A stretch of DNA of 43,596 nt. It comes from a phage. Positions within the stretch are counted from its first letter, which is position 1. Each line of letters begins with the position of its first letter. Made by a program: the position numbers and the translations under genes. The notes under the pieces are model-generated. The model searched no databases. It saw only the letters and a list, made by a program, of their open reading frames with translations, and was not told the DNA's origin. The stretch lies in sequence record PX871048.2; one strand, 5' to 3'. Below, piece by piece: positions 20,892 to 43,231 of this stretch.

Positions 20892-21066
20892 AAAGTCTAT
20901 TGTTAATCCCGCCTAAATACCCAAGTCACTGATAATTAAAGTTTCTATAGTTGCCGTAAGCGAGGTAGAGAGTACTTCACTCCGCTGTGGTGGGCTAACG
21001 CCCACCCACTGCGTTGCGTACTCTTTTAAGAAACGAAAGAATCACAACGGCAACGTAACTATTCTC

Positions 21067-21095
21067 TTGCACACCCCAACATAATAGGATACTAT
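21067..21095 (+). promoter_or_regulatory. sigma70-type promoter, class I (TTGCAC-17-TACTAT) with AATAG-N4-CTATT palindrome over -10
   Basis: TTGCAC ACCCCAACATAATAGGA TACTAT; identical 33-mer at 42676-42707 on minus. Confidence 0.65.
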
Positions 21096-21129
21096 TCACT
21101 TATCGAAACGAGACAGAGGAGTGAGGGTT

Positions 21130-22371: not shown

Positions 22372-22400
22372 TTGCACACACAGATATAATAGACTACTAT
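22372..22400 (+). promoter_or_regulatory. sigma70-type promoter, class I (TTGCAC-17-TACTAT) with palindrome
   Basis: TTGCAC ACACAGATATAATAGAC TACTAT; leader begins ATCGAAACGAGAGGAG. Confidence 0.65.
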
Positions 22401-29430: not shown

Positions 29431-30903
29431 ATGTTAACTATGAACGGTCAGAATCAGGGTGTTAAGACAAAACACCAGGAATGGCTGCAGCACTTCAATA
29501 AATGGCAGAAGGTTCGCCATGCTCTGGAAGGCGACCTTATTCGCTATCTTCGCAACGTCGGGAAGAATGAGCCTGACCCGACCTACGCGGCCCAGCGCCA
29601 GGAAGAATACGAGAACGGCGCCATCTGCTACAACTTCACCAAACGTACCCTGGCGGGGATGGTCGGCAGCGTTATGCGTAAAGACCCCGAGCAGATTATC
29701 CCGCCTGAACTGGAGTACCTGTTGCGCAACGCCGACGGTTCCGGTGTCGGGCTGTGGCAGCACGCGCAGGATACGCTAATGGAGATTGACTCAGTGGGCC
29801 GTGGCGGGTTGCTGGTGGACGCCCCGGAGACAGCCGCAGCAACGGCGGCAGAGCAGAACGCAGGGTTGTTAAACCCGGTCATCGCATTCTACACCGCAGA
29901 GAACATCATCAACTGGCGGCTGACACGCATCGGTTCAGTTAACCGCGTGACGATGGTCGTGCTGCGCGAGGCATGGGAGTACTCAGAACCTGGCGCGGAA
30001 TTTGATACCAAGTTCGGCGAGCAATACCGCGTCCTTGACCTGATTGACGGTCGCTACCGCCAGCGCATCTATCGCTTCGATGCCGAAGGTGGCGCTCAGG
30101 ATGAAGTAATCGAAATATTCCCGGAGCTTGGCGAACAGTTGCGCGGCAAAATCCCGTTCACGTTCATTGGGGCAAGCAACAACGATGCAACCATTGACGA
30201 CGCACCTTTGCTGCCGTTGGCTGAGCTTAATATTGGGCATTTCCGCAACAGCGCGGACAATGAGGAATCCAGCTTCGTTGTAGGGCAGCCCACTCTGTTC
30301 ATCGCCCCTGGCGAGAACATGAGCGTGGAACAGTGGAAAGAAGCCAACCCTCACGGCGTGCGCATGGGGTCGCGCTCAGGCCATAACATCGGTTACGGCG
30401 GCAACGCGTTTCTGGTTCAGGCCGGAGAGAACAACCTCGCCAAACAGAACATGCTGGATAAAGAGAATCAGGCCATCCAGATTGGTGCGCAGCTTATCAC
30501 GCCGACGCAGCAGATTACCGCTGAATCAGCCCGCCTGCAACGTGGCGCTGATACATCCGTAATGGCAACCATTGCGCGTAACGTAAGCATGGCATACACA
30601 GAGGCGTTGCGTTGGGTGGCTGCTATGCTTGGGCTGCGTGAAGGCACGGAGATTGAGTTCAAACTGAACATGGAGTTCTTCCTGCAACCGATGACGGCGC
30701 AAGACCGCGCACAGTGGATGGCAGACATTAACGCTGGTTTACTGCCAGCAACCGCCTACTACTCCGCGCTGCGTAAGGCCGGGGTAACTGACTGGACCGA
30801 CGAGGATATTCAGAACGCTATCGAAGACGCACCGCTGCCGTTAGGCGCCGCTTCTCAGGTAGCAGGAGAAATTCCGCAGTCGGCGCAGCAACAGCAGGAG
30901 TAA
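29431..30903 (+). CDS. portal protein
   Basis: 490 aa immediately after large terminase. Confidence 0.7.
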   Translation: MLTMNGQNQGVKTKHQEWLQHFNKWQKVRHALEGDLIRYLRNVGKNEPDPTYAAQRQEEYENGAICYNFTKRTLAGMVGSVMRKDPEQIIPPELEYLLRNADGSGVGLWQHAQDTLMEIDSVGRGGLLVDAPETAAATAAEQNAGLLNPVIAFYTAENIINWRLTRIGSVNRVTMVVLREAWEYSEPGAEFDTKFGEQYRVLDLIDGRYRQRIYRFDAEGGAQDEVIEIFPELGEQLRGKIPFTFIGASNNDATIDDAPLLPLAELNIGHFRNSADNEESSFVVGQPTLFIAPGENMSVEQWKEANPHGVRMGSRSGHNIGYGGNAFLVQAGENNLAKQNMLDKENQAIQIGAQLITPTQQITAESARLQRGADTSVMATIARNVSMAYTEALRWVAAMLGLREGTEIEFKLNMEFFLQPMTAQDRAQWMADINAGLLPATAYYSALRKAGVTDWTDEDIQNAIEDAPLPLGAASQVAGEIPQSAQQQQE

Positions 30904-30936
30904 AGAAAAAGGCCCCTTAAGGGGCCTTAGTTTTAT
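30904..30936. terminator. bidirectional terminator (perfect palindrome AAGGCCCCTTAAGGGGCCTT flanked by A/T runs)
   Basis: serves + portal gene and convergent minus moron gene. Confidence 0.7.
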
Positions 30937-31178
30937 CGCACTCTCATAAATAGCTTACCTTTGCGTTGCAACAAATCCATACCGACAGCACCTTCGCCAG
31001 ATTTGTTCGGACGGCGCATTAAACTAAAGTTCCATACTCTAGCTTTTGAAGCATCTTTCGCATTGCACACCCAAAGTCTACCATTTTCTCTTAGGTCAAA
31101 TAAGTCCGATATACTGAGATTATTAACCGGTATGAAACCGCCAATGAACTCACGTTCGCAACTAGGTAATTCCTGCAT
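30933..31178 (-). CDS. moron-like hypothetical protein (81 aa) antisense within late module
   Basis: own class I promoter and AGGAGGG RBS, own terminator. Confidence 0.5.
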   Translation of the reverse strand: MQELPSCEREFIGGFIPVNNLSISDLFDLRENGRLWVCNAKDASKARVWNFSLMRRPNKSGEGAVGMDLLQRKGKLFMRVR

Positions 31179-31203: not shown

Positions 31204-31232
31204 ATAGTACCCTATTATATTGGTGTCTGCAA
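31204..31232 (-). promoter_or_regulatory. sigma70-type promoter, class I variant (TTGCAG-17-TACTAT) with palindrome
   Basis: minus-strand reading TTGCAG ACACCAATATAATAGGG TACTAT. Confidence 0.6.
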
Positions 31233-31276
31233 ATATTATTTTTATGCGTTACACTGGCGATACTACAGGAGGGCAT

Positions 31277-32320
31277 ATGAGCTTACTTACATCCCTAATT
31301 AGCCACCAGATATGGCTACAACGCACCGCATCCGGCGAGGTGAAAGACCTTGCGCCGTTCATTCAGGAAATGCGGGACGAAATCAAACGGCAGGTGTTGC
31401 TGTTCGGCGACGACGGTCGCAGCACCGCGCGACTGAATAAACTGTTACGTGACCTCGAAGAAGCACTGACCGGGCTTACAGGCGACTGGCAAACGAAGCT
31501 GACAGAAGACCTAAAGGAACTGGCGGCGTATGAGGCCGAGTGGAACGTGAAGACACTGACGACTAACGTTAACGCGGAATTTGTTACGCCTACCGCCGAA
31601 CAGGTGTGGGCCGCTGCCGAGTTTCAGCCCTTATCATTAAGTGACAAGCCCGTTGATTTCGCCAAGCTGATGGATGGCTGGGGTGAAACAGAAGTATCGC
31701 GACTGGTAACTGGTGTTAAGATGGGTTTCGTTCAAGGCCAAACCACACGGCAGATTGTTAAAAATGTCGTTGGCGCTGGCGGACTGGCGGACATCTCTGA
31801 GCGCAACGCAGCTACGGTAACCCGCACCGCGCTGTCGCACATATCCAACGAAGCACGCAACGAGACGTACCGTCAGAACGACGACATCATCGAGAAATAT
31901 GAATGGGTATCGACGCTTGACAGCCGTACCAGTACGATTTGCAGAGCCAGGGACGGAATGACGTGGGAAATCGGTAAGGGGCCGATGCCCCCCGCCCATT
32001 TTGGCTGCCGAAGCACCACAGCACCTGTAATCAGTTCAGAATTCGACTTCCTCGATAAAGACGCAAAACGTGCAGCTAAGGGTGCGGACGGCGGAACTCA
32101 GGTAAGCGTGGACACCTCTTACTACGAGTTCCTAAAACAACAACCGGCATGGTTTCAGGATGAAGCACTCGGTCCTGTTCGCGGTAAGATTTTCCGCAAC
32201 AGCGGTATATCGCCGGAAGAGTTTCGCGTAATATCTGTAGATGGTTTCGGGAATCCGCTTACGCTTAAGCAGATGGCGGAACTCGATAAACGTGTTGCTG
32301 ATTATCTGAAAGGGGAATAA
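31277..32320 (+). CDS. head morphogenesis protein (Mu F-like minor head protein)
   Basis: position after portal; CxxC-like STICRARDG..HFGCRST; RBS CAGGAGGG. Confidence 0.6.
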   Translation: MSLLTSLISHQIWLQRTASGEVKDLAPFIQEMRDEIKRQVLLFGDDGRSTARLNKLLRDLEEALTGLTGDWQTKLTEDLKELAAYEAEWNVKTLTTNVNAEFVTPTAEQVWAAAEFQPLSLSDKPVDFAKLMDGWGETEVSRLVTGVKMGFVQGQTTRQIVKNVVGAGGLADISERNAATVTRTALSHISNEARNETYRQNDDIIEKYEWVSTLDSRTSTICRARDGMTWEIGKGPMPPAHFGCRSTTAPVISSEFDFLDKDAKRAAKGADGGTQVSVDTSYYEFLKQQPAWFQDEALGPVRGKIFRNSGISPEEFRVISVDGFGNPLTLKQMAELDKRVADYLKGE

Positions 32321-32819: not shown

Positions 32820-32915
32820 TCACCATTCCCCTCTATCTGCATCCTCAACCCCGCTAATAGCCCACACAAACAATCCTAAATTAACCAGTAACACAAATGA
32901 AATTGCTATCATCAT
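32820..32915 (-). CDS. small membrane peptide (31 aa), moron
   Basis: GGAGGTGG RBS then ATG; single TM; track start 33005 lies upstream of the promoter so internal ATG used. Confidence 0.45.
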   Translation of the reverse strand: MMIAISFVLLVNLGLFVWAISGVEDADRGEW

Positions 32916-32941: not shown

Positions 32942-32970
32942 ATAGTACGCTATTATGTTGGGGTGTGCAA
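32942..32970 (-). promoter_or_regulatory. sigma70-type promoter, class I (TTGCAC-17-TACTAT) with palindrome
   Basis: minus-strand reading TTGCAC ACCCCAACATAATAGCG TACTAT. Confidence 0.65.
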
Positions 32971-38446: not shown

Positions 38447-38859
38447 TGGGCTACTTTGAGGACTTAACAAAAGCGTTTGACGTGCCGCTGGTATCGTTCG
38501 GAACCGCCAACGGCATCAAGGTTGCGCTTGAAAACATCGACGCGCCAACGTCAACCAATACCCCGTATCTGGCAAGTTACATGTTGCTCGCTGATACGGA
38601 GCAGGCGGATTTGTTCTTCACGGAACAACGCTCAGGTGTTTATCAGGTCGACATTAACTACGCATCGGTGAAAGGTAGCGCGCCAATCAATAAAATGGCA
38701 GACTTACTTAACACGGCATTCAAAGCAGGTAAGTCATTTTCACGTAACGACATCTGCGCCGAGGTTCAATCGGTTAGCCTGGGGCCACTGATTGTAGAAA
38801 ACGGATGGGCCAAACGACCATTGTCAATTAACTTTATTGCATTCACCAAGAGGCTGTGA
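38443..38859 (+). CDS. tail terminator-like protein
   Basis: 138 aa immediately before major tail gene. Confidence 0.4.
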   Translation: MMGYFEDLTKAFDVPLVSFGTANGIKVALENIDAPTSTNTPYLASYMLLADTEQADLFFTEQRSGVYQVDINYASVKGSAPINKMADLLNTAFKAGKSFSRNDICAEVQSVSLGPLIVENGWAKRPLSINFIAFTKRL

Positions 38860-40028
38860 ATATGGCTACAACTCCTTTTAAGGGCGCGAATACCGCGCAA
38901 TTCTATGTGGCGGAAGTGACCCCGGGCGTAACACCAAGTAACCCGGTATGGTCGCCGTTGCGCAACACTGGCGGCGTTCCTGCGGTAACCCGCGATGCGC
39001 TGACCTCCAACGAACTGGACGGCAGCCGTGAAACTACGTCCATCCGCACTGGTAACAAGCAGGTCAGCGGAGAGTATGCCATTGAGCTTAGCTCCCGTAG
39101 TCAGGATGATTTCCTCGCTGGTGCGATGACATCTACGTGGCAGGATGGGGTAGAGATTACGGGTGCAGAAATTACGGTCGCCCCCGTAGGTAAAACATTC
39201 ACCCGCGCCGCTGGTAGCTTCATTACCGACGGTGTAGAAGTTGGCGACCTGATTGCGTTCACCGACTTAACCGGCGACAACGCAAAACCGTTTATCGTGA
39301 CCGCGGTTTCTGCTCTTGTAGTTACGGGCGCGGGCATTCAGCACACGCTGACAGCAGAGACTGTAACCACCGACGCTAAAACCGGCGACAAACTGGAAAC
39401 CGGTAACGCATGTAAGACGTTCTCCATCCTGACATGGTTCAAAGGACAGTGCGGGAACCCTGACGCGTACATGTTGACCAAAGGCGTGGAAATCTCCGGT
39501 TTCACCATTGAACAGGCCGTAAACGCGATGGTGACAGGCAGCTTCCCGTTCATCGGTCTGAGTCAGGAAATTCTTTCCACACCGCCAGCAGGTTCTGATT
39601 TCTCTCAGGTGACGTTTACTGATGAGCCGTTCTCCTCTGTAGATGTGTCTGTGTTCGACGGTTCTACGCCGTTGCGTTGCGATACTCTGACCATCACCAA
39701 CGACAACGGCGCATCTGCTCAGTTCGAACTCGGCAACAGCAGCGTTGCGTTCGTGGAACGAGGTCGCGCGGCTAACACCTTCTCCATCTCCGGCAAGCTG
39801 TACGACATGGCGATGATTCAGAAGTTTATCAACGAACAGCAGGTAGAGATTAACTCTATTCTGGCGGGGGTAAACGGTGCTATGTCTTTCAGTTTGAAAC
39901 GTGCCGAACTTACGGCGGTCACACCAGAAATATCTGGCCCGGAATCAATTACCCAAAGTATAGAAGGGCAGTCCACAGGCAATCAGTACCAGTCGTCTAT
40001 TGTTATCCAGCGTATCACCTACGCATAA
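38856..40028 (+). CDS. major tail (tube) protein
   Basis: 390 aa, last gene before strong terminator. Confidence 0.55.
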   Translation: MNMATTPFKGANTAQFYVAEVTPGVTPSNPVWSPLRNTGGVPAVTRDALTSNELDGSRETTSIRTGNKQVSGEYAIELSSRSQDDFLAGAMTSTWQDGVEITGAEITVAPVGKTFTRAAGSFITDGVEVGDLIAFTDLTGDNAKPFIVTAVSALVVTGAGIQHTLTAETVTTDAKTGDKLETGNACKTFSILTWFKGQCGNPDAYMLTKGVEISGFTIEQAVNAMVTGSFPFIGLSQEILSTPPAGSDFSQVTFTDEPFSSVDVSVFDGSTPLRCDTLTITNDNGASAQFELGNSSVAFVERGRAANTFSISGKLYDMAMIQKFINEQQVEINSILAGVNGAMSFSLKRAELTAVTPEISGPESITQSIEGQSTGNQYQSSIVIQRITYA

Positions 40029-40032
40029 AACT

Positions 40033-40056
40033 AAGGCCCCGAAAGGGGCCTTTTTC
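40033..40056. terminator. bidirectional terminator (AAGGCCCC-GAAA-GGGGCCTT plus T-run)
   Basis: ends + late operon and minus accessory island. Confidence 0.75.
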
Positions 40057-40263
40057 TCACTCACTTTTGAATGGCATTTCGTAGAAGTTAGTTAACTGAC
40101 CTCTGTCACTCCGTTCTGTCATCTCTTTTGTCGCCTCTTCCTTGCTACCTACGGCGTAAATATCAACCCACTCATCCCATTCTTCGTCATATACGCGGAT
40201 AACGTATATTGCCCCCATTGTGCCTTCACGCATTTGGGTAAATCCCCAGGATTCTATTGGCAA
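40057..40263 (-). CDS. hypothetical acidic protein (start uncertain)
   Basis: 68-aa ORF, last gene of minus island. Confidence 0.4.
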   Translation of the reverse strand: MPIESWGFTQMREGTMGAIYVIRVYDEEWDEWVDIYAVGSKEEATKEMTERSDRGQLTNFYEMPFKSE

Positions 40264-40795
40264 CCGTGGCCGCGGTTAATGTAATCTCACCAGGAATGAT
40301 GGCGACGTCATGGCATACTACCCCATCAATATCGTACAGGTAGCCACGGCTATCCCCGTCAAACGTGTAGCCGTCTCGGTGCAAGCGGACGATTCGCACG
40401 TCATGCCCAGCGGCGACGATAGGGGCAACTTCACTGGCAAACCCACCGTCGGACACCACAAAAACTTCGTCGCCGTCAGGCAAGTTTTCAGCGAGATACT
40501 TACCGAAATAATCATTGCCAAGTACAGGCTTAATGAATTGCTCCGAGATAGCAATCATGAACTGACGTCGCGACAACCCATTAAGGAAACATTCTGGCTT
40601 TTCTTTCCGTGCCCGGTCGTCGTAGCCGTCGAGAAATTCGTGGTAAGCATCCGGGCCTAACGCTGCCCGAGCAATATTGAACATTGGATTCTTGAAACTG
40701 GTAGTTCCTTTCGCAAAGCCCATTTCTACCATCGCCATAGCAAGCGTGTCTTTCCCGCAACCCGCAGGGCCATTAAGGATAATTACCTTAGCCAT
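40226..40795 (-). CDS. P-loop nucleotide kinase, dNMP kinase-like
   Basis: Walker A LNGPAGCGKDT and VSDGGFASE..VRIVRLHRDG resemble T4 gene 1-type dNMP kinase; from memory. Confidence 0.55.
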   Translation of the reverse strand: MAKVIILNGPAGCGKDTLAMAMVEMGFAKGTTSFKNPMFNIARAALGPDAYHEFLDGYDDRARKEKPECFLNGLSRRQFMIAISEQFIKPVLGNDYFGKYLAENLPDGDEVFVVSDGGFASEVAPIVAAGHDVRIVRLHRDGYTFDGDSRGYLYDIDGVVCHDVAIIPGEITLTAATVANRILGIYPNA

Positions 40796-41280
40796 TATTT
40801 ATTGCTCCCGTGTGATTTTAAGTGTGTAGAGTTCCCGTTACAGTCGTATTCAGTAACCGCGTGCGTAGTGACTCCTAAGCCGCGGAAATGCTTAATCACC
40901 GCGGGCGAGTCGTCGAATGCGCACAATATTCTCTCCAGCCCGATAGCACGCAACACCTCTTCTTTAATTACGATGTCTTTTCTGTTGTCGTGTTTGCTGC
41001 GCATGATTAGCTGATAAAATTCGACGCGGTGGCGCTGCAGCCACATTCTGGTTTCTTTTTCTGCATCATCACTGCGGCCCGTTAAAATAATAACGGCATA
41101 GCGACGATTAAGGGCGTTACACAGTTCGATGTTATCTTTAATGGGCGCGTCATCTTTGCAGGCCATGTTAAAAGGCTTCCACGCCCATGTTTCGTTGTAG
41201 TTATCTTTCGGTAGCAGGTGTAAACGATGAGTACCGTCCGCCAATGTCCCGTCTAAATCGAAAATCACAATATCTTTCAT
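40795..41280 (-). CDS. HAD-superfamily phosphatase
   Basis: N-terminal FDLDGTL motif plus downstream ILTGR and FDD motifs. Confidence 0.6.
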   Translation of the reverse strand: MKDIVIFDLDGTLADGTHRLHLLPKDNYNETWAWKPFNMACKDDAPIKDNIELCNALNRRYAVIILTGRSDDAEKETRMWLQRHRVEFYQLIMRSKHDNRKDIVIKEEVLRAIGLERILCAFDDSPAVIKHFRGLGVTTHAVTEYDCNGNSTHLKSHGSNK

Positions 41281-42407
41281 CCCAGCATCTCCGGTGAAAT
41301 AGTTAAACGTGCAACCTCACCATATTCGGCGCTATAAGTAATTACATTTGCACTGCGCCCTGACATCCAACCGCCGCGTGAGGCATAGGCGTCTTTAGCC
41401 GCTAAGGTTCGGTGTTGCTCAACAATCATGTTACGGCTTTCTACAATCTTCTGATGGTGCAGGTGGCCTACGTGGGCGTAGCTGTAAACACTCTCTCCGA
41501 ACGCTTTGCGGAACTTAGCAATCATTACCGGTTCGATAGCGTCGAATCGTGCTTTATGCCCGTGATGGAAGAACAGCGTCGTTTTGCCGTGTTGCACCAT
41601 CTTGTAAACATCCGGCGACGTATCGACGAACACACGAGGCTCATTGTCGTACAGCGTGCTGAACATCTCAGCCAGCCAAATCATTCCGCTTTCGTCGTGG
41701 TTCCCTTGCACGATAAGCAAGCGAACATTTTTATGCTTAACGAGTGCCATATCAACAACACGGCGGACCATACGAATCATGTAGCGGACCAGTTTCTGAT
41801 AGCGCGTGTCCGCGTCAAGAACATGACCACTCGCTGGCGTAACCGCATCCAGGCTATCGAAGTGTGCAAGGTCACCTAGCAGATTAATAACACCCGTTCC
41901 TGCATCCGGCGCTTTCTGAAACGCAGCATCGAACCAGCGAGAGAACAGGTCTTCCGCAATCTTCATATCCCAGTCGTCGCCGCTCTCGTCGGCCCAGGCC
42001 AGCATACCGAGATGGAAATCAGACACAGTGTAAAGGTTGAGTAGTTTATCGTCGCGTTTAGCGCGGGCGGCTTTAACAGGCGCAACTGGCGTAATCTCTG
42101 ACTTCATGCCTTCGATTACGGCTTTCATCAACTCGACCTGACGTTCGGCGTCAGTGTCTGTCTTAACCCATTGCAACTTAGTGTTGCCGGACTCATCCAC
42201 CAGGGACGACGTCCCTTTAATCTTGTAGCCGTCAGGAACAAGGTGACTAACGTCACGCCCGTGACCCACGCCTTTCTTGGCCAGCTTCGCTTTACGGATA
42301 CGAATAACGCGGTCTGAGATGCCGTATTTACGGGCAATGTCGATATTCTTCATCCCGGCGTTCAATTCTTCCTGTAACTGTTCGTCGGTTATTTTCTTCC
42401 GGGCCAT
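41277..42407 (-). CDS. calcineurin-like metallophosphoesterase with N-terminal HTH
   Basis: DFHLG, GDLAHFD, GNHD, HHGH, GHLHH motifs; N-terminus IDIARKYGISDRVIRIRK. Confidence 0.6.
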   Translation of the reverse strand: MARKKITDEQLQEELNAGMKNIDIARKYGISDRVIRIRKAKLAKKGVGHGRDVSHLVPDGYKIKGTSSLVDESGNTKLQWVKTDTDAERQVELMKAVIEGMKSEITPVAPVKAARAKRDDKLLNLYTVSDFHLGMLAWADESGDDWDMKIAEDLFSRWFDAAFQKAPDAGTGVINLLGDLAHFDSLDAVTPASGHVLDADTRYQKLVRYMIRMVRRVVDMALVKHKNVRLLIVQGNHDESGMIWLAEMFSTLYDNEPRVFVDTSPDVYKMVQHGKTTLFFHHGHKARFDAIEPVMIAKFRKAFGESVYSYAHVGHLHHQKIVESRNMIVEQHRTLAAKDAYASRGGWMSGRSANVITYSAEYGEVARLTISPEMLG

Positions 42408-42445
42408 GCTTATGTCCTCATGTGTAGGATTTGTCCTATACTAGC

Positions 42446-42637
42446 TTACTTCTCGTTAACATTCGAGTTGCAAGCCCAGATTAAAATAAAGACCCACGGC
42501 AGCAGAGCCCAGCCAAGAAACAGGTTAGCCATGAATATTGCCAACTTCGCTTTATGGCCACGCATATGGGCTACTAAAAACGGGATAAAATAAACTAAAA
42601 CGATAATGATTAAGAAGAACATAGTAATGCCAGTCAT
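42446..42637 (-). CDS. superinfection-immunity-like small membrane protein
   Basis: YFIPFLVAHMRGHKAKLAIFMANLFLGWALLPW matches the conserved pattern of Imm-type proteins; RBS CAGGAG; own promoter. Confidence 0.55.
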   Translation of the reverse strand: MTGITMFFLIIIVLVYFIPFLVAHMRGHKAKLAIFMANLFLGWALLPWVFILIWACNSNVNEK

Positions 42638-42675
42638 GGTGTAGCTCCTGTTTGAGTTAACATTGTTGGTGTAAG

Positions 42676-42707
42676 TGAATAGTATCCTATTATGTTGGGG
42701 TGTGCAA
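42676..42707 (-). promoter_or_regulatory. sigma70-type promoter, class I (TTGCAC-17-TACTAT), identical 33-mer to promoter at 21067
   Basis: minus-strand reading TTGCACACCCCAACATAATAGGATACTATTCAC. Confidence 0.65.
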
Positions 42708-42814
42708 GTAATGTGTTAGAATTATTTTGCGCCTAGTGTCGCACACGAAAAGCGGGTGGTTCCCGTCTGGCGCATTCACATTAACCAGTAACCTCTTAAC
42801 CAAAGGATTAAAGA

Positions 42815-43231
42815 ATGAAACTTTCTGATTTTTATTACGAAGCTGAGGCAGAAAAAGGCGCCCGTATGCCGATCCCACTGAAAGACGGCACCGATTCAGG
42901 GGAGTGGCTGAACGTTGTTTCACCGGAGGCAGACGTTGCCGTTAAAGCTATGAGGGCGTTTACACTTGCGTACCGCGCGGCATTAGGTAAATTGAAACCG
43001 CTTCGTGATAAATGCGAGGAACTGAAAGATTTCTCGGAATACAATATCAAGATGGAAGACGCCGCAACGGACCTTAACCGCCAGTTAGCGCTTGAACTGG
43101 TTAACGGTTGGAGTCTCGACGATGAATTTAATAAAGAGAACCTGAATACTCTTTTCTCACAATATAAACGACTCGCTGAACACGTTGTTGTTTTCCACAA
43201 TGAACAGCTACGCCAATTGCAGGAAAAGTAG
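42815..43231 (+). CDS. tail assembly chaperone (G-like)
   Basis: 138 aa directly upstream of tape measure gene across the window junction; RBS AAAGGA. Confidence 0.45.
   Translation: MKLSDFYYEAEAEKGARMPIPLKDGTDSGEWLNVVSPEADVAVKAMRAFTLAYRAALGKLKPLRDKCEELKDFSEYNIKMEDAATDLNRQLALELVNGWSLDDEFNKENLNTLFSQYKRLAEHVVVFHNEQLRQLQEK

Follow-up and report, generated by a model that had tools for sequence, protein, structure and literature searches.

The sequence examined here, PX871048.2 (43,596 nucleotides; hereafter the window), is a complete, circularly permuted genome of an E. coli phage (Kagunavirus), with a gene order matching that of a complete Kagunavirus genome. Between two of its tail genes, it contains a minus-strand operon (40033-42709, promoter to terminator) encoding an Imm-type membrane protein, a metallophosphoesterase (MPE) with an N-terminal helix-turn-helix (HTH), a HAD phosphatase, a P-loop protein similar to deoxynucleoside monophosphate (dNMP) kinases and a small acidic protein. 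This operon, referred to below as the island, is a real, autonomous and well delimited accessory element of the moron type. Concerning its role, the explanation that we favour, with a probability of roughly 0.45, is that the island would serve DNA breakdown and the handling of the dNMP pool early in infection, the activities, substrates, timing and link to host DNA all being predictions from sequence.

According to this explanation, the Imm-type protein presumably blocks superinfection, while the MPE, similar to Mre11/SbcD and presumably Mn-dependent and targeted by its HTH, would be a DNA nuclease that cuts or degrades DNA early, most plausibly that of the host. Its action would parallel the degradation of the host chromosome by protein A1 of phage T5. 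The HAD protein, of the T5 Dmp/T4 Pnkp type, and the kinase, of the T4 gp1 type, would act on the deoxynucleotides thus released. The kinase would convert some dNMPs to the diphosphates, from which host Ndk would then supply triphosphates to the family-A polymerase of the phage, and the HAD protein would strip phosphate from other dNMPs, or from 3′-phosphate products, thus shaping the pool.

A previous sequence-only reading had left three options for the enzymes of the island: nucleotide-pool metabolism, healing of nucleic acid ends, and signalling or anti-defence. The first one, extended to DNA breakdown, is now favoured and end-healing is disfavoured, because the kinase groups with T4 gp1, the HAD protein groups with T5 Dmp, and no ligase was found. 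Neither an RNA nor a DNA ligase appeared among ten large non-structural open reading frames (ORFs) of the window that were scanned (they include a SNF2 helicase, the family-A polymerase, a single-stranded DNA-binding protein, a PD-(D/E)XK exonuclease, a primase-helicase and a lysozyme) or among the 75 annotated coding sequences of a close relative. Those ten ORFs contained no other enzyme of nucleotide metabolism either. On the function of the island genes, the literature on Kagunavirus and Guernseyvirinae offered no more than genome notes and a single transcriptome of coarse resolution.

Organization of the island

The genome runs from the tape measure and tail genes, through leftward replication genes and rightward small genes with the lysis genes, to the terminase, head and tail genes. 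A 2.75-kb region comprising the island finds matches in 328 phage records at 80-99% identity, nearly all of them Guernseyvirinae (Kagunavirus, Jerseyvirus). Five minus-strand ORFs fill positions 40057-42637, the GC skew is negative across the block, and both flanking genes lie on the plus strand (Table 1). Gene junctions overlap at ATGA (start of the HAD gene on the stop of the MPE gene), at TAATG (start of the kinase gene on the stop of the HAD gene) and at ATGCGTGA; coupled translation of the last four genes is therefore implied. The features expected of a moron are found: own promoter and terminator, antisense orientation amid late-operon genes (major tail protein and chaperone), and a cargo that varies among relatives.

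The antisense island and its five proteins had all been described in the sequence-only reading, and every feature was found where it had been placed. The descriptive names given there (Imm-type protein, HTH-metallophosphoesterase, DxDGT HAD phosphatase, dNMP-kinase-like protein, acidic ORF) also held, four of them through family searches and the acidic ORF as a protein without family. The genes belong to known families, annotated in hundreds of deposited genomes; the island is largely ordinary and represents no new kind of system.

The metallophosphoesterase

The MPE is composed of a three-helix HTH (residues ~8-44), a beta-hairpin plus helix (61-102) and the MPE domain (119-376). It matches phrog_704 with an E-value of 1e-167, and its HTH is GerE-like. 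Matches to the Pfam families Metallophos and Metallophos_2 were weak, below the gathering score. Nevertheless, all five metal-ligand motifs of the binuclear metallophosphoesterase superfamily (DxH, GD, GNH[DE], H and GHxH) are present, and D130-x-H132, G178-D179-x-x-H182, N236-H237, H282-G-H284 and G314-H315-x-H317 are invariant in sets of 41 to 73 homologues. Because the catalytic residues are invariant, the MPE is considered an enzyme rather than simply a DNA-binding protein.

For structure prediction, a diverse alignment was built from representatives and a profile search, as the first homologue search gave only sequences 97-99% identical. The AlphaFold2 model obtained a predicted local distance difference test score (pLDDT) of 83, and the best structural matches of the predicted fold were Mre11 and SbcD. 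The homologue of phage T1 is annotated as SbcD-like (HHpred 99%). The MPE is likely a nuclease; it should be kept in mind that the label ‘DNA repair exonuclease’ of phrog_704 is a guess from fold. Direct comparison with PDB sequences was of little help: the matches of phmmer searches with the MPE and the kinase were nothing but noise from the P-loop or the HTH, and a 41-sequence MPE profile gave only marginal matches to Mre11, SbcD and ‘Nuclease MPE’ (E 0.5-0.7). NCBIfam and PADLOC scans of the island proteins added nothing. The MPE shares with Mre11/SbcD and with the MPE of Pseudomonas putida the binuclear fold and a second motif of the GDxxH form, but it differs from Mre11/SbcD in possessing an N-terminal HTH and in that no clear capping domain was resolved. 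No Rad50/SbcC (SMC) partner was encountered among the ten ORFs or in the annotation of the relative.

The family is large, with 4,640 representatives at 50% clustering and members in 2,005 of 50,697 phage records. It extends from the Guernseyvirinae, through relatives of about 75% identity (TheodorHerzl, welsh), to Drexlerviridae including T1 and to phages of Vibrio, Rhodobacter and Campylobacter. In lambdoid-like and other loci, the MPE homologue immediately precedes the lysis cassette or the terminase, a slot usually occupied by late-gene regulators like Q. A literature search on HTH-MPE late regulators and on T1 genes for host-DNA degradation gave nothing usable.

The HAD phosphatase and the kinase

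The HAD protein matches HAD_PNKP (PF25109; 69.5 bits) over the full length of the Pnkp phosphatase domain, and phrog_415 with 223 bits (6.5e-66). Dmp of T5 falls in the same PHROG (3.6e-57), whereas T4 Pnkp falls in phrog_505. The best solved relatives are Pnkp1 (4XRP) and T4 Pnk. Residues D8, D10, R19, R69, D102, D123 and D124 align with the essential catalytic residues of T4 Pnkp, and they are also kept in T5 Dmp. Since the catalytic residues are common to Dmp and T4 Pnkp, the sequence cannot decide the substrate: judging by these alignments, the subfamily spans a polynucleotide 3′-phosphatase (T4 Pnkp) and a mononucleotidase (Dmp). The likeness to T4 PseT and to bacterial Pnkp1 consists in a match along the entire phosphatase domain, in which the catalytic Asp, Arg and Lys align. 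Unlike T4 Pnkp, the HAD protein lacks a fused Pnk-type kinase; the kinase next to it is gp1-like, the order is phosphatase followed by kinase, and there is no Rnl-type ligase partner in the ten ORFs or in the annotation of the relative.

The label ‘polynucleotide kinase’ carried by phrog_415 is misleading, because the characterised member of this PHROG is T5 Dmp, a 5′-dNMP phosphatase without kinase domain. The label spreads into many GenBank phage annotations. The practical value of the present analysis lies in the correction of this annotation and in a testable link between phrog_704 and T5 A1, considered below.

The kinase matches phrog_139 (dNMP kinase) with an E-value of 9e-46 and shares this PHROG with T4 gp1. 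Its AlphaFold2 model (pLDDT 92.7) has as best fold match 1DEK, the structure of T4 gp1, and profile alignment with hhalign extended over 75 columns of T4 gp1 with a probability of 84%. So, both proteins have PHROG, fold and profile in common, but they differ in size (189 versus 241 aa) and share only 18% identity. The annotated substrates of T4 gp1 are dTMP, dGMP and hm-dCMP, and not dAMP or dCMP. In some cases, distant homologues of the kinase adjoin ThyX and DNA polymerase, in others dCMP deaminase, DUF4406 and an MPE homologue. Gene 1 of T4 is also located amid morphogenesis genes (57A, 3, 2, 4), in parallel to the position of the kinase within a tail module here. A role of the kinase in hypermodification, similar to that of 5-hmdU DNA kinase, was considered and rejected, as neither the annotation of the relative nor the ten ORFs contained a thymidylate-synthase-like or base-modification gene.

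The resemblance to Pnkp makes it necessary to consider an end-healing module, in which the HAD protein would remove 3′-phosphates, the kinase would phosphorylate 5′-OH ends and the MPE would open 2′,3′-cyclic phosphates, as in Clostridium thermocellum Pnkp, thereby repairing tRNA or DNA that defence nucleases of the host had cleaved. The HAD_PNKP score, the solved relatives, the alignment of all the catalytic residues, a BLASTP match to T4 Pnkp given below and the translational coupling of the kinase gene to the HAD gene are consistent with such a module, and DNA nicks, once healed, could be sealed by the LigA of the host. However, hhalign aligned the kinase with T4 Pnkp only in a 26-column P-loop, with no Pnk-type 5′-kinase domain; phosphatase and kinase are separate proteins; the PHROG of the HAD protein contains a mononucleotidase; the distant kinase homologues lie amid genes of nucleotide synthesis; and the fold of the MPE is nearest to DNA nucleases. 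Together with the lack of a ligase in the genes surveyed, this weakens end-healing to the point that we consider it quite improbable.

The pre-early operon of T5 as an analogue

Functionally, the island comes closest to the pre-early (first-step-transfer) operon of T5. The order of that operon is A2 (DNA-binding), T5.005 (a 65-aa membrane protein with two transmembrane segments), A1, two small genes and Dmp. A1 is a predicted metallophosphatase that resembles nucleases of double-strand break repair and proofreading; it is necessary and sufficient for degradation of the host chromosome, and Dmp optimises nucleotide pools (bioRxiv 10.64898/2026.04.02.716235).

The likeness comprises an early operon served by a host-type promoter, a small protein with two transmembrane segments, a metallophosphatase and a HAD phosphatase, the latter in the same PHROG as Dmp. 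The MPE of the island and A1 also have the same top fold classes, those of double-strand break repair and proofreading nucleases. A DNA-binding function occurs in both operons, separate in T5 (A2) and fused as the HTH of the MPE in the island. On the other side, any homology between A1 (556 aa, phrog_1745) and the MPE (376 aa, phrog_704) is distant, T5 disposes of dNMPs via Dmp and encodes its dNMP kinase elsewhere whereas the island co-transcribes phosphatase and kinase, and the two-step DNA transfer of T5 has no equivalent in the island phage. No similarity was detectable between T5.005 and the Imm-type protein, or between A2 and the HTH of the MPE.

The relationship between A1 and the MPE was approached with a profile of 11 A1 homologues, aligned by hhalign to the profile of the MPE domain. 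The alignment covered 217 columns (E 1.3e-4, probability 53%), with NHD..WL, HGH, GHxH and a C-terminal ITY hairpin in register; the N-terminal HTH segments aligned with a probability of 42%. With A1 as a single sequence, only the NHD motif aligned to the MPE profile (probability 16%). These alignments are no more than suggestive of homology between A1 and the MPE.

A bolder proposal would be that the HTH-MPE of phrog_704, present in about 2,000 of 50,697 phage genomes, is the counterpart of T5 A1 outside Demerecviridae, degrading or silencing the host chromosome early, with the Dmp-like HAD protein and the gp1-like kinase acting as a dNMP sorter that feeds replication and erases modified-dNMP alarms, such as m6-dAMP, that trigger nucleotide-depleting defences. 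We think this improbable as a whole. If the analogy with A1 were true, degradation of host DNA by a metallophosphatase would be common in small siphoviruses (Kagunavirus, Dhillonvirus, Drexlerviridae) and not a peculiarity of T5. Small siphoviruses of these groups serve in phage therapy and synthetic biology, and the matter would then bear on the risk of transduction and on which defences sense infection.

The mention of alarms brings in an anti-defence role, in which the MPE would destroy cyclic nucleotide or oligonucleotide messengers, or the HAD protein and the kinase would clear away a dNMP that serves as an alarm, for example m6-dAMP, which PUA-Cal-HAD senses. A defence that senses m6-dAMP from phage-driven breakdown of the chromosome has been described (bioRxiv 10.64898/2026.01.15.699771), and the island, as is frequent for counter-defence genes, has a promoter of its own and varies in part. 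Against this, no island protein had a PADLOC match, the HTH fusion and the ranking of Mre11/SbcD as first folds point to DNA as the substrate, and Kagunavirus isolates are reported to be broadly sensitive to restriction-modification and to Old (bioRxiv 10.1101/2024.09.12.612763). An anti-defence role seems highly improbable.

Distribution of the three enzymes

The sequence-only reading had treated MPE, HAD protein and kinase as a functional trio. In agreement with this, the three genes are contiguous and in the same order in T1-like and other siphovirus contigs at 45-58% identity, and in an unrelated 74-kb contig homologues of the MPE and the kinase lie two genes apart, next to a dCMP deaminase. 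The MPE is, nonetheless, alone in most lineages, and HAD and kinase are replaceable. Among the 50,697 phage records, the kinase occurs in 1,430 and the HAD protein in 1,385, to be compared with the 2,005 of the MPE; at an identity of at least 80%, the records are 292 for the MPE, 57 for the HAD protein and 53 for the kinase. HAD and kinase are carried by about one fifth of the close relatives. In contigs with an MPE 97-99% identical, ORFs of 66 and 76 aa replace them, and other close relatives have an HNH endonuclease gene or a Rha/ANT-like gene in the slot. In T1, an HNH gene comes after the MPE gene. Among near-identical Kagunavirus and Jerseyvirus genomes, the slot from the MPE gene to the terminator of the major tail gene is a hotspot of gene swapping.

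Because of these counts, and because other cargo accompanies an MPE of 97-99% identity, the island can be divided into a core, Imm and MPE, and a variable slot with HAD, kinase and the small ORF as its cargo; by the same comparison, the three enzymes do not form an obligate unit. Near-identical phages that naturally carry or lack the HAD-kinase cargo provide a ready-made genetic comparison. Concerning the possibility that the trio consisted of routine salvage enzymes at a position conserved in all relatives, which had been named as speaking against a special role, about two thirds of it was found: two of the enzymes are clearly homologous to characterised phage enzymes of nucleotide metabolism, but the position varies.

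The same distribution would fit genes that are neighbours without functional relation, the MPE being a core protein of replication, recombination or regulation (for instance, an Mre11-like protein that processes replication intermediates, or a DNA-binding late-gene regulator), and HAD, kinase and small ORF being independent morons in a permissive slot. The excess of MPE over HAD and kinase at both levels of identity, the exchange of cargo in near-identical phages and in T1, the location of MPE homologues upstream of lysis or terminase genes, and a weak match of the MPE N-terminus to phrog_836, ‘late transcriptional activator’ (E 0.003), are in line with it. It is opposed by the recurrence of the order MPE-HAD-kinase in distinct lineages, the proximity of MPE and kinase homologues in the 74-kb contig, the coupled translation implied by the overlapping start and stop codons, and the invariant catalytic residues that make the MPE an enzyme. 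On balance, this explanation is unlikely, though it is the main alternative to the favoured one.

Several points weigh directly against DNA breakdown with handling of the dNMP pool. In most cases, the MPE is unaccompanied by HAD or kinase, and its place upstream of lysis or terminase genes in temperate-phage-like loci could reflect a regulatory or packaging-related role. In the transcriptome of a close relative, of coarse time resolution, imm was placed in the ‘late’ class together with DNA polymerase (PMC12645636). By BLASTP, the HAD protein is closer to the phosphatase domain of T4 Pnkp (PseT), matched as a whole at 1e-8, than to T5 Dmp, matched only at the N-terminus at 1e-3; it may therefore act as a 3′-phosphatase on polynucleotides. 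A dNMP phosphatase and a dNMP kinase expressed together look futile unless their specificities differ. Finally, the link to A1 is weak: A1 matches only phrog_1745 and the MPE phrog_704, hhalign gives the pair a probability of about 50%, and the name T5 A1 does not occur among the 50 viral fold matches listed for the MPE, many of which are nameless.

Table 1. Location of the island, of its control elements and of related features. Positions are those of the window, except where a locus (L number) or other phage is named.
Feature	Position	Strand	Remarks
Imm-type small membrane protein	42446-42637	-	63 aa; pI 9.6; two hydrophobic segments
HTH-fused binuclear metallophosphoesterase	41277-42407	-	376 aa
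HAD phosphatase, Pnkp/Dmp subfamily	40795-41280	-	161 aa; DxDGT motif (FDLDGT)
P-loop dNMP-kinase-like protein	40226-40795	-	189 aa
Small acidic protein	40057-40218	-	likely 53 aa, from ATG at 40218; pI 4.4
Promoter element of the island	42673-42709	-	37-nt exact repeat CTTGCACACCCCAACATAATAGGATACTATTCACTTA; TTGCAC (-35), 17 nt, TACTAT (-10) at 42679-42707
Bidirectional intrinsic terminator	40033-40052	both	AAGGCCCC-TTTC-GGGGCCTT; full stretch AAGGCCCCTTTCGGGGCCTT
Major tail protein	38856-40028	+	name from relative PQ417132
Tail assembly chaperone	42815-43231	+	name from relative PQ417132
TTGCAC-N17-TACTAT copies	21067-21095, 22372-22400	+	
TTGCAC-N17-TACTAT copies	31204-31232, 32942-32970, 42679-42707	-	
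Second antisense moron	32820-32915	-	31-aa hydrophobic peptide MMIAISFVLLVNLGLFVWAISGVEDADRGEW; promoter 32942-32970
Third antisense cassette	30933-31178	-	81-aa ORF; promoter 31204-31232
Portal gene	29431-30903		
Head morphogenesis gene	31220-32320	+	
MPE homologues by lysis/terminase genes	L007 7001-8170; L009 7001-8122; L025 4992-6134; L030 4992-6116; L090 7001-8134		L090 is T1
Slot with other cargo	L016 6128-6548; L018 6128-6548; L012 6128-6358; L022 6137-7006; L031 6038-7142		
T5 Dmp	L091 124-858		
T4 gene 1	L137 4650-5375		

The Imm-type protein and the small acidic protein

The Imm-type protein matches the T4 Imm-like family Imm_superinfect (PF14373) with 52.5 bits (cutoff 27.9; 4.5e-14) over profile positions 1-42 of 42, and phrog_1039, ‘immunity to superinfection’, at 3e-23. 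The location of its gene upstream of the MPE gene is conserved in Kagunavirus and Jerseyvirus-like loci. The acidic protein found no match in Pfam, PHROG, NCBIfam or PADLOC. The mechanical ORF call gives it 68 aa (40057-40263) from a TTG start at 40263, but it probably has 53 aa: among relatives with different upstream neighbours (loci L013, L017 and L022, one of them without HAD and kinase), conservation begins at MxxIYVIRVYDEEW, which favours the shorter form.

Promoter family and terminator

The sequence-only reading had noted a 33-mer common to the island promoter and an early promoter at 21067. This is correct and slightly understated, as the identity runs over 37 nt, with 21065-21101 on the plus strand equal to the island element on the minus strand. 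The same 37-mer stands upstream of imm in vB_VIPECOTH07. The pattern TTGCAC-N17-TACTAT occurs five times in the window, compared to 0.11 expected. The island promoter is a moderate match to the sigma-70 consensus and was missed by a generic promoter scan; it is predicted to be active, presumably early, with host RNA polymerase, and it belongs to the class of the other early-type promoters of the phage.

The terminator was recognized by a terminator scan on the minus strand, with 8 pairs (6 of them G-C) and the tail AGTTTTAT. On the plus strand, a GGCCCC/GGGGCC stem is followed by TTTTTCT. The T-runs on both strands bear out its previous description as bidirectional, and the element is predicted to stop transcription of the island in one direction (minus strand) and of the major tail gene in the other (plus strand).

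The promoter family is phage-specific and its spacer is conserved (ACACCCCAAyATAATAGnnTACTAT). Three of the five copies are antisense within the plus-strand structural module. One of them precedes a second antisense moron, located between head genes, whose gene for a hydrophobic peptide has the ribosome-binding site GGAGGTGG and is followed by the stem-loop terminator AAAGCCCCTTAACGGGGCTT with a T-run. Another precedes a third antisense cassette, between the portal gene and the head morphogenesis gene, and in this case the promoter overlaps the start of the latter.

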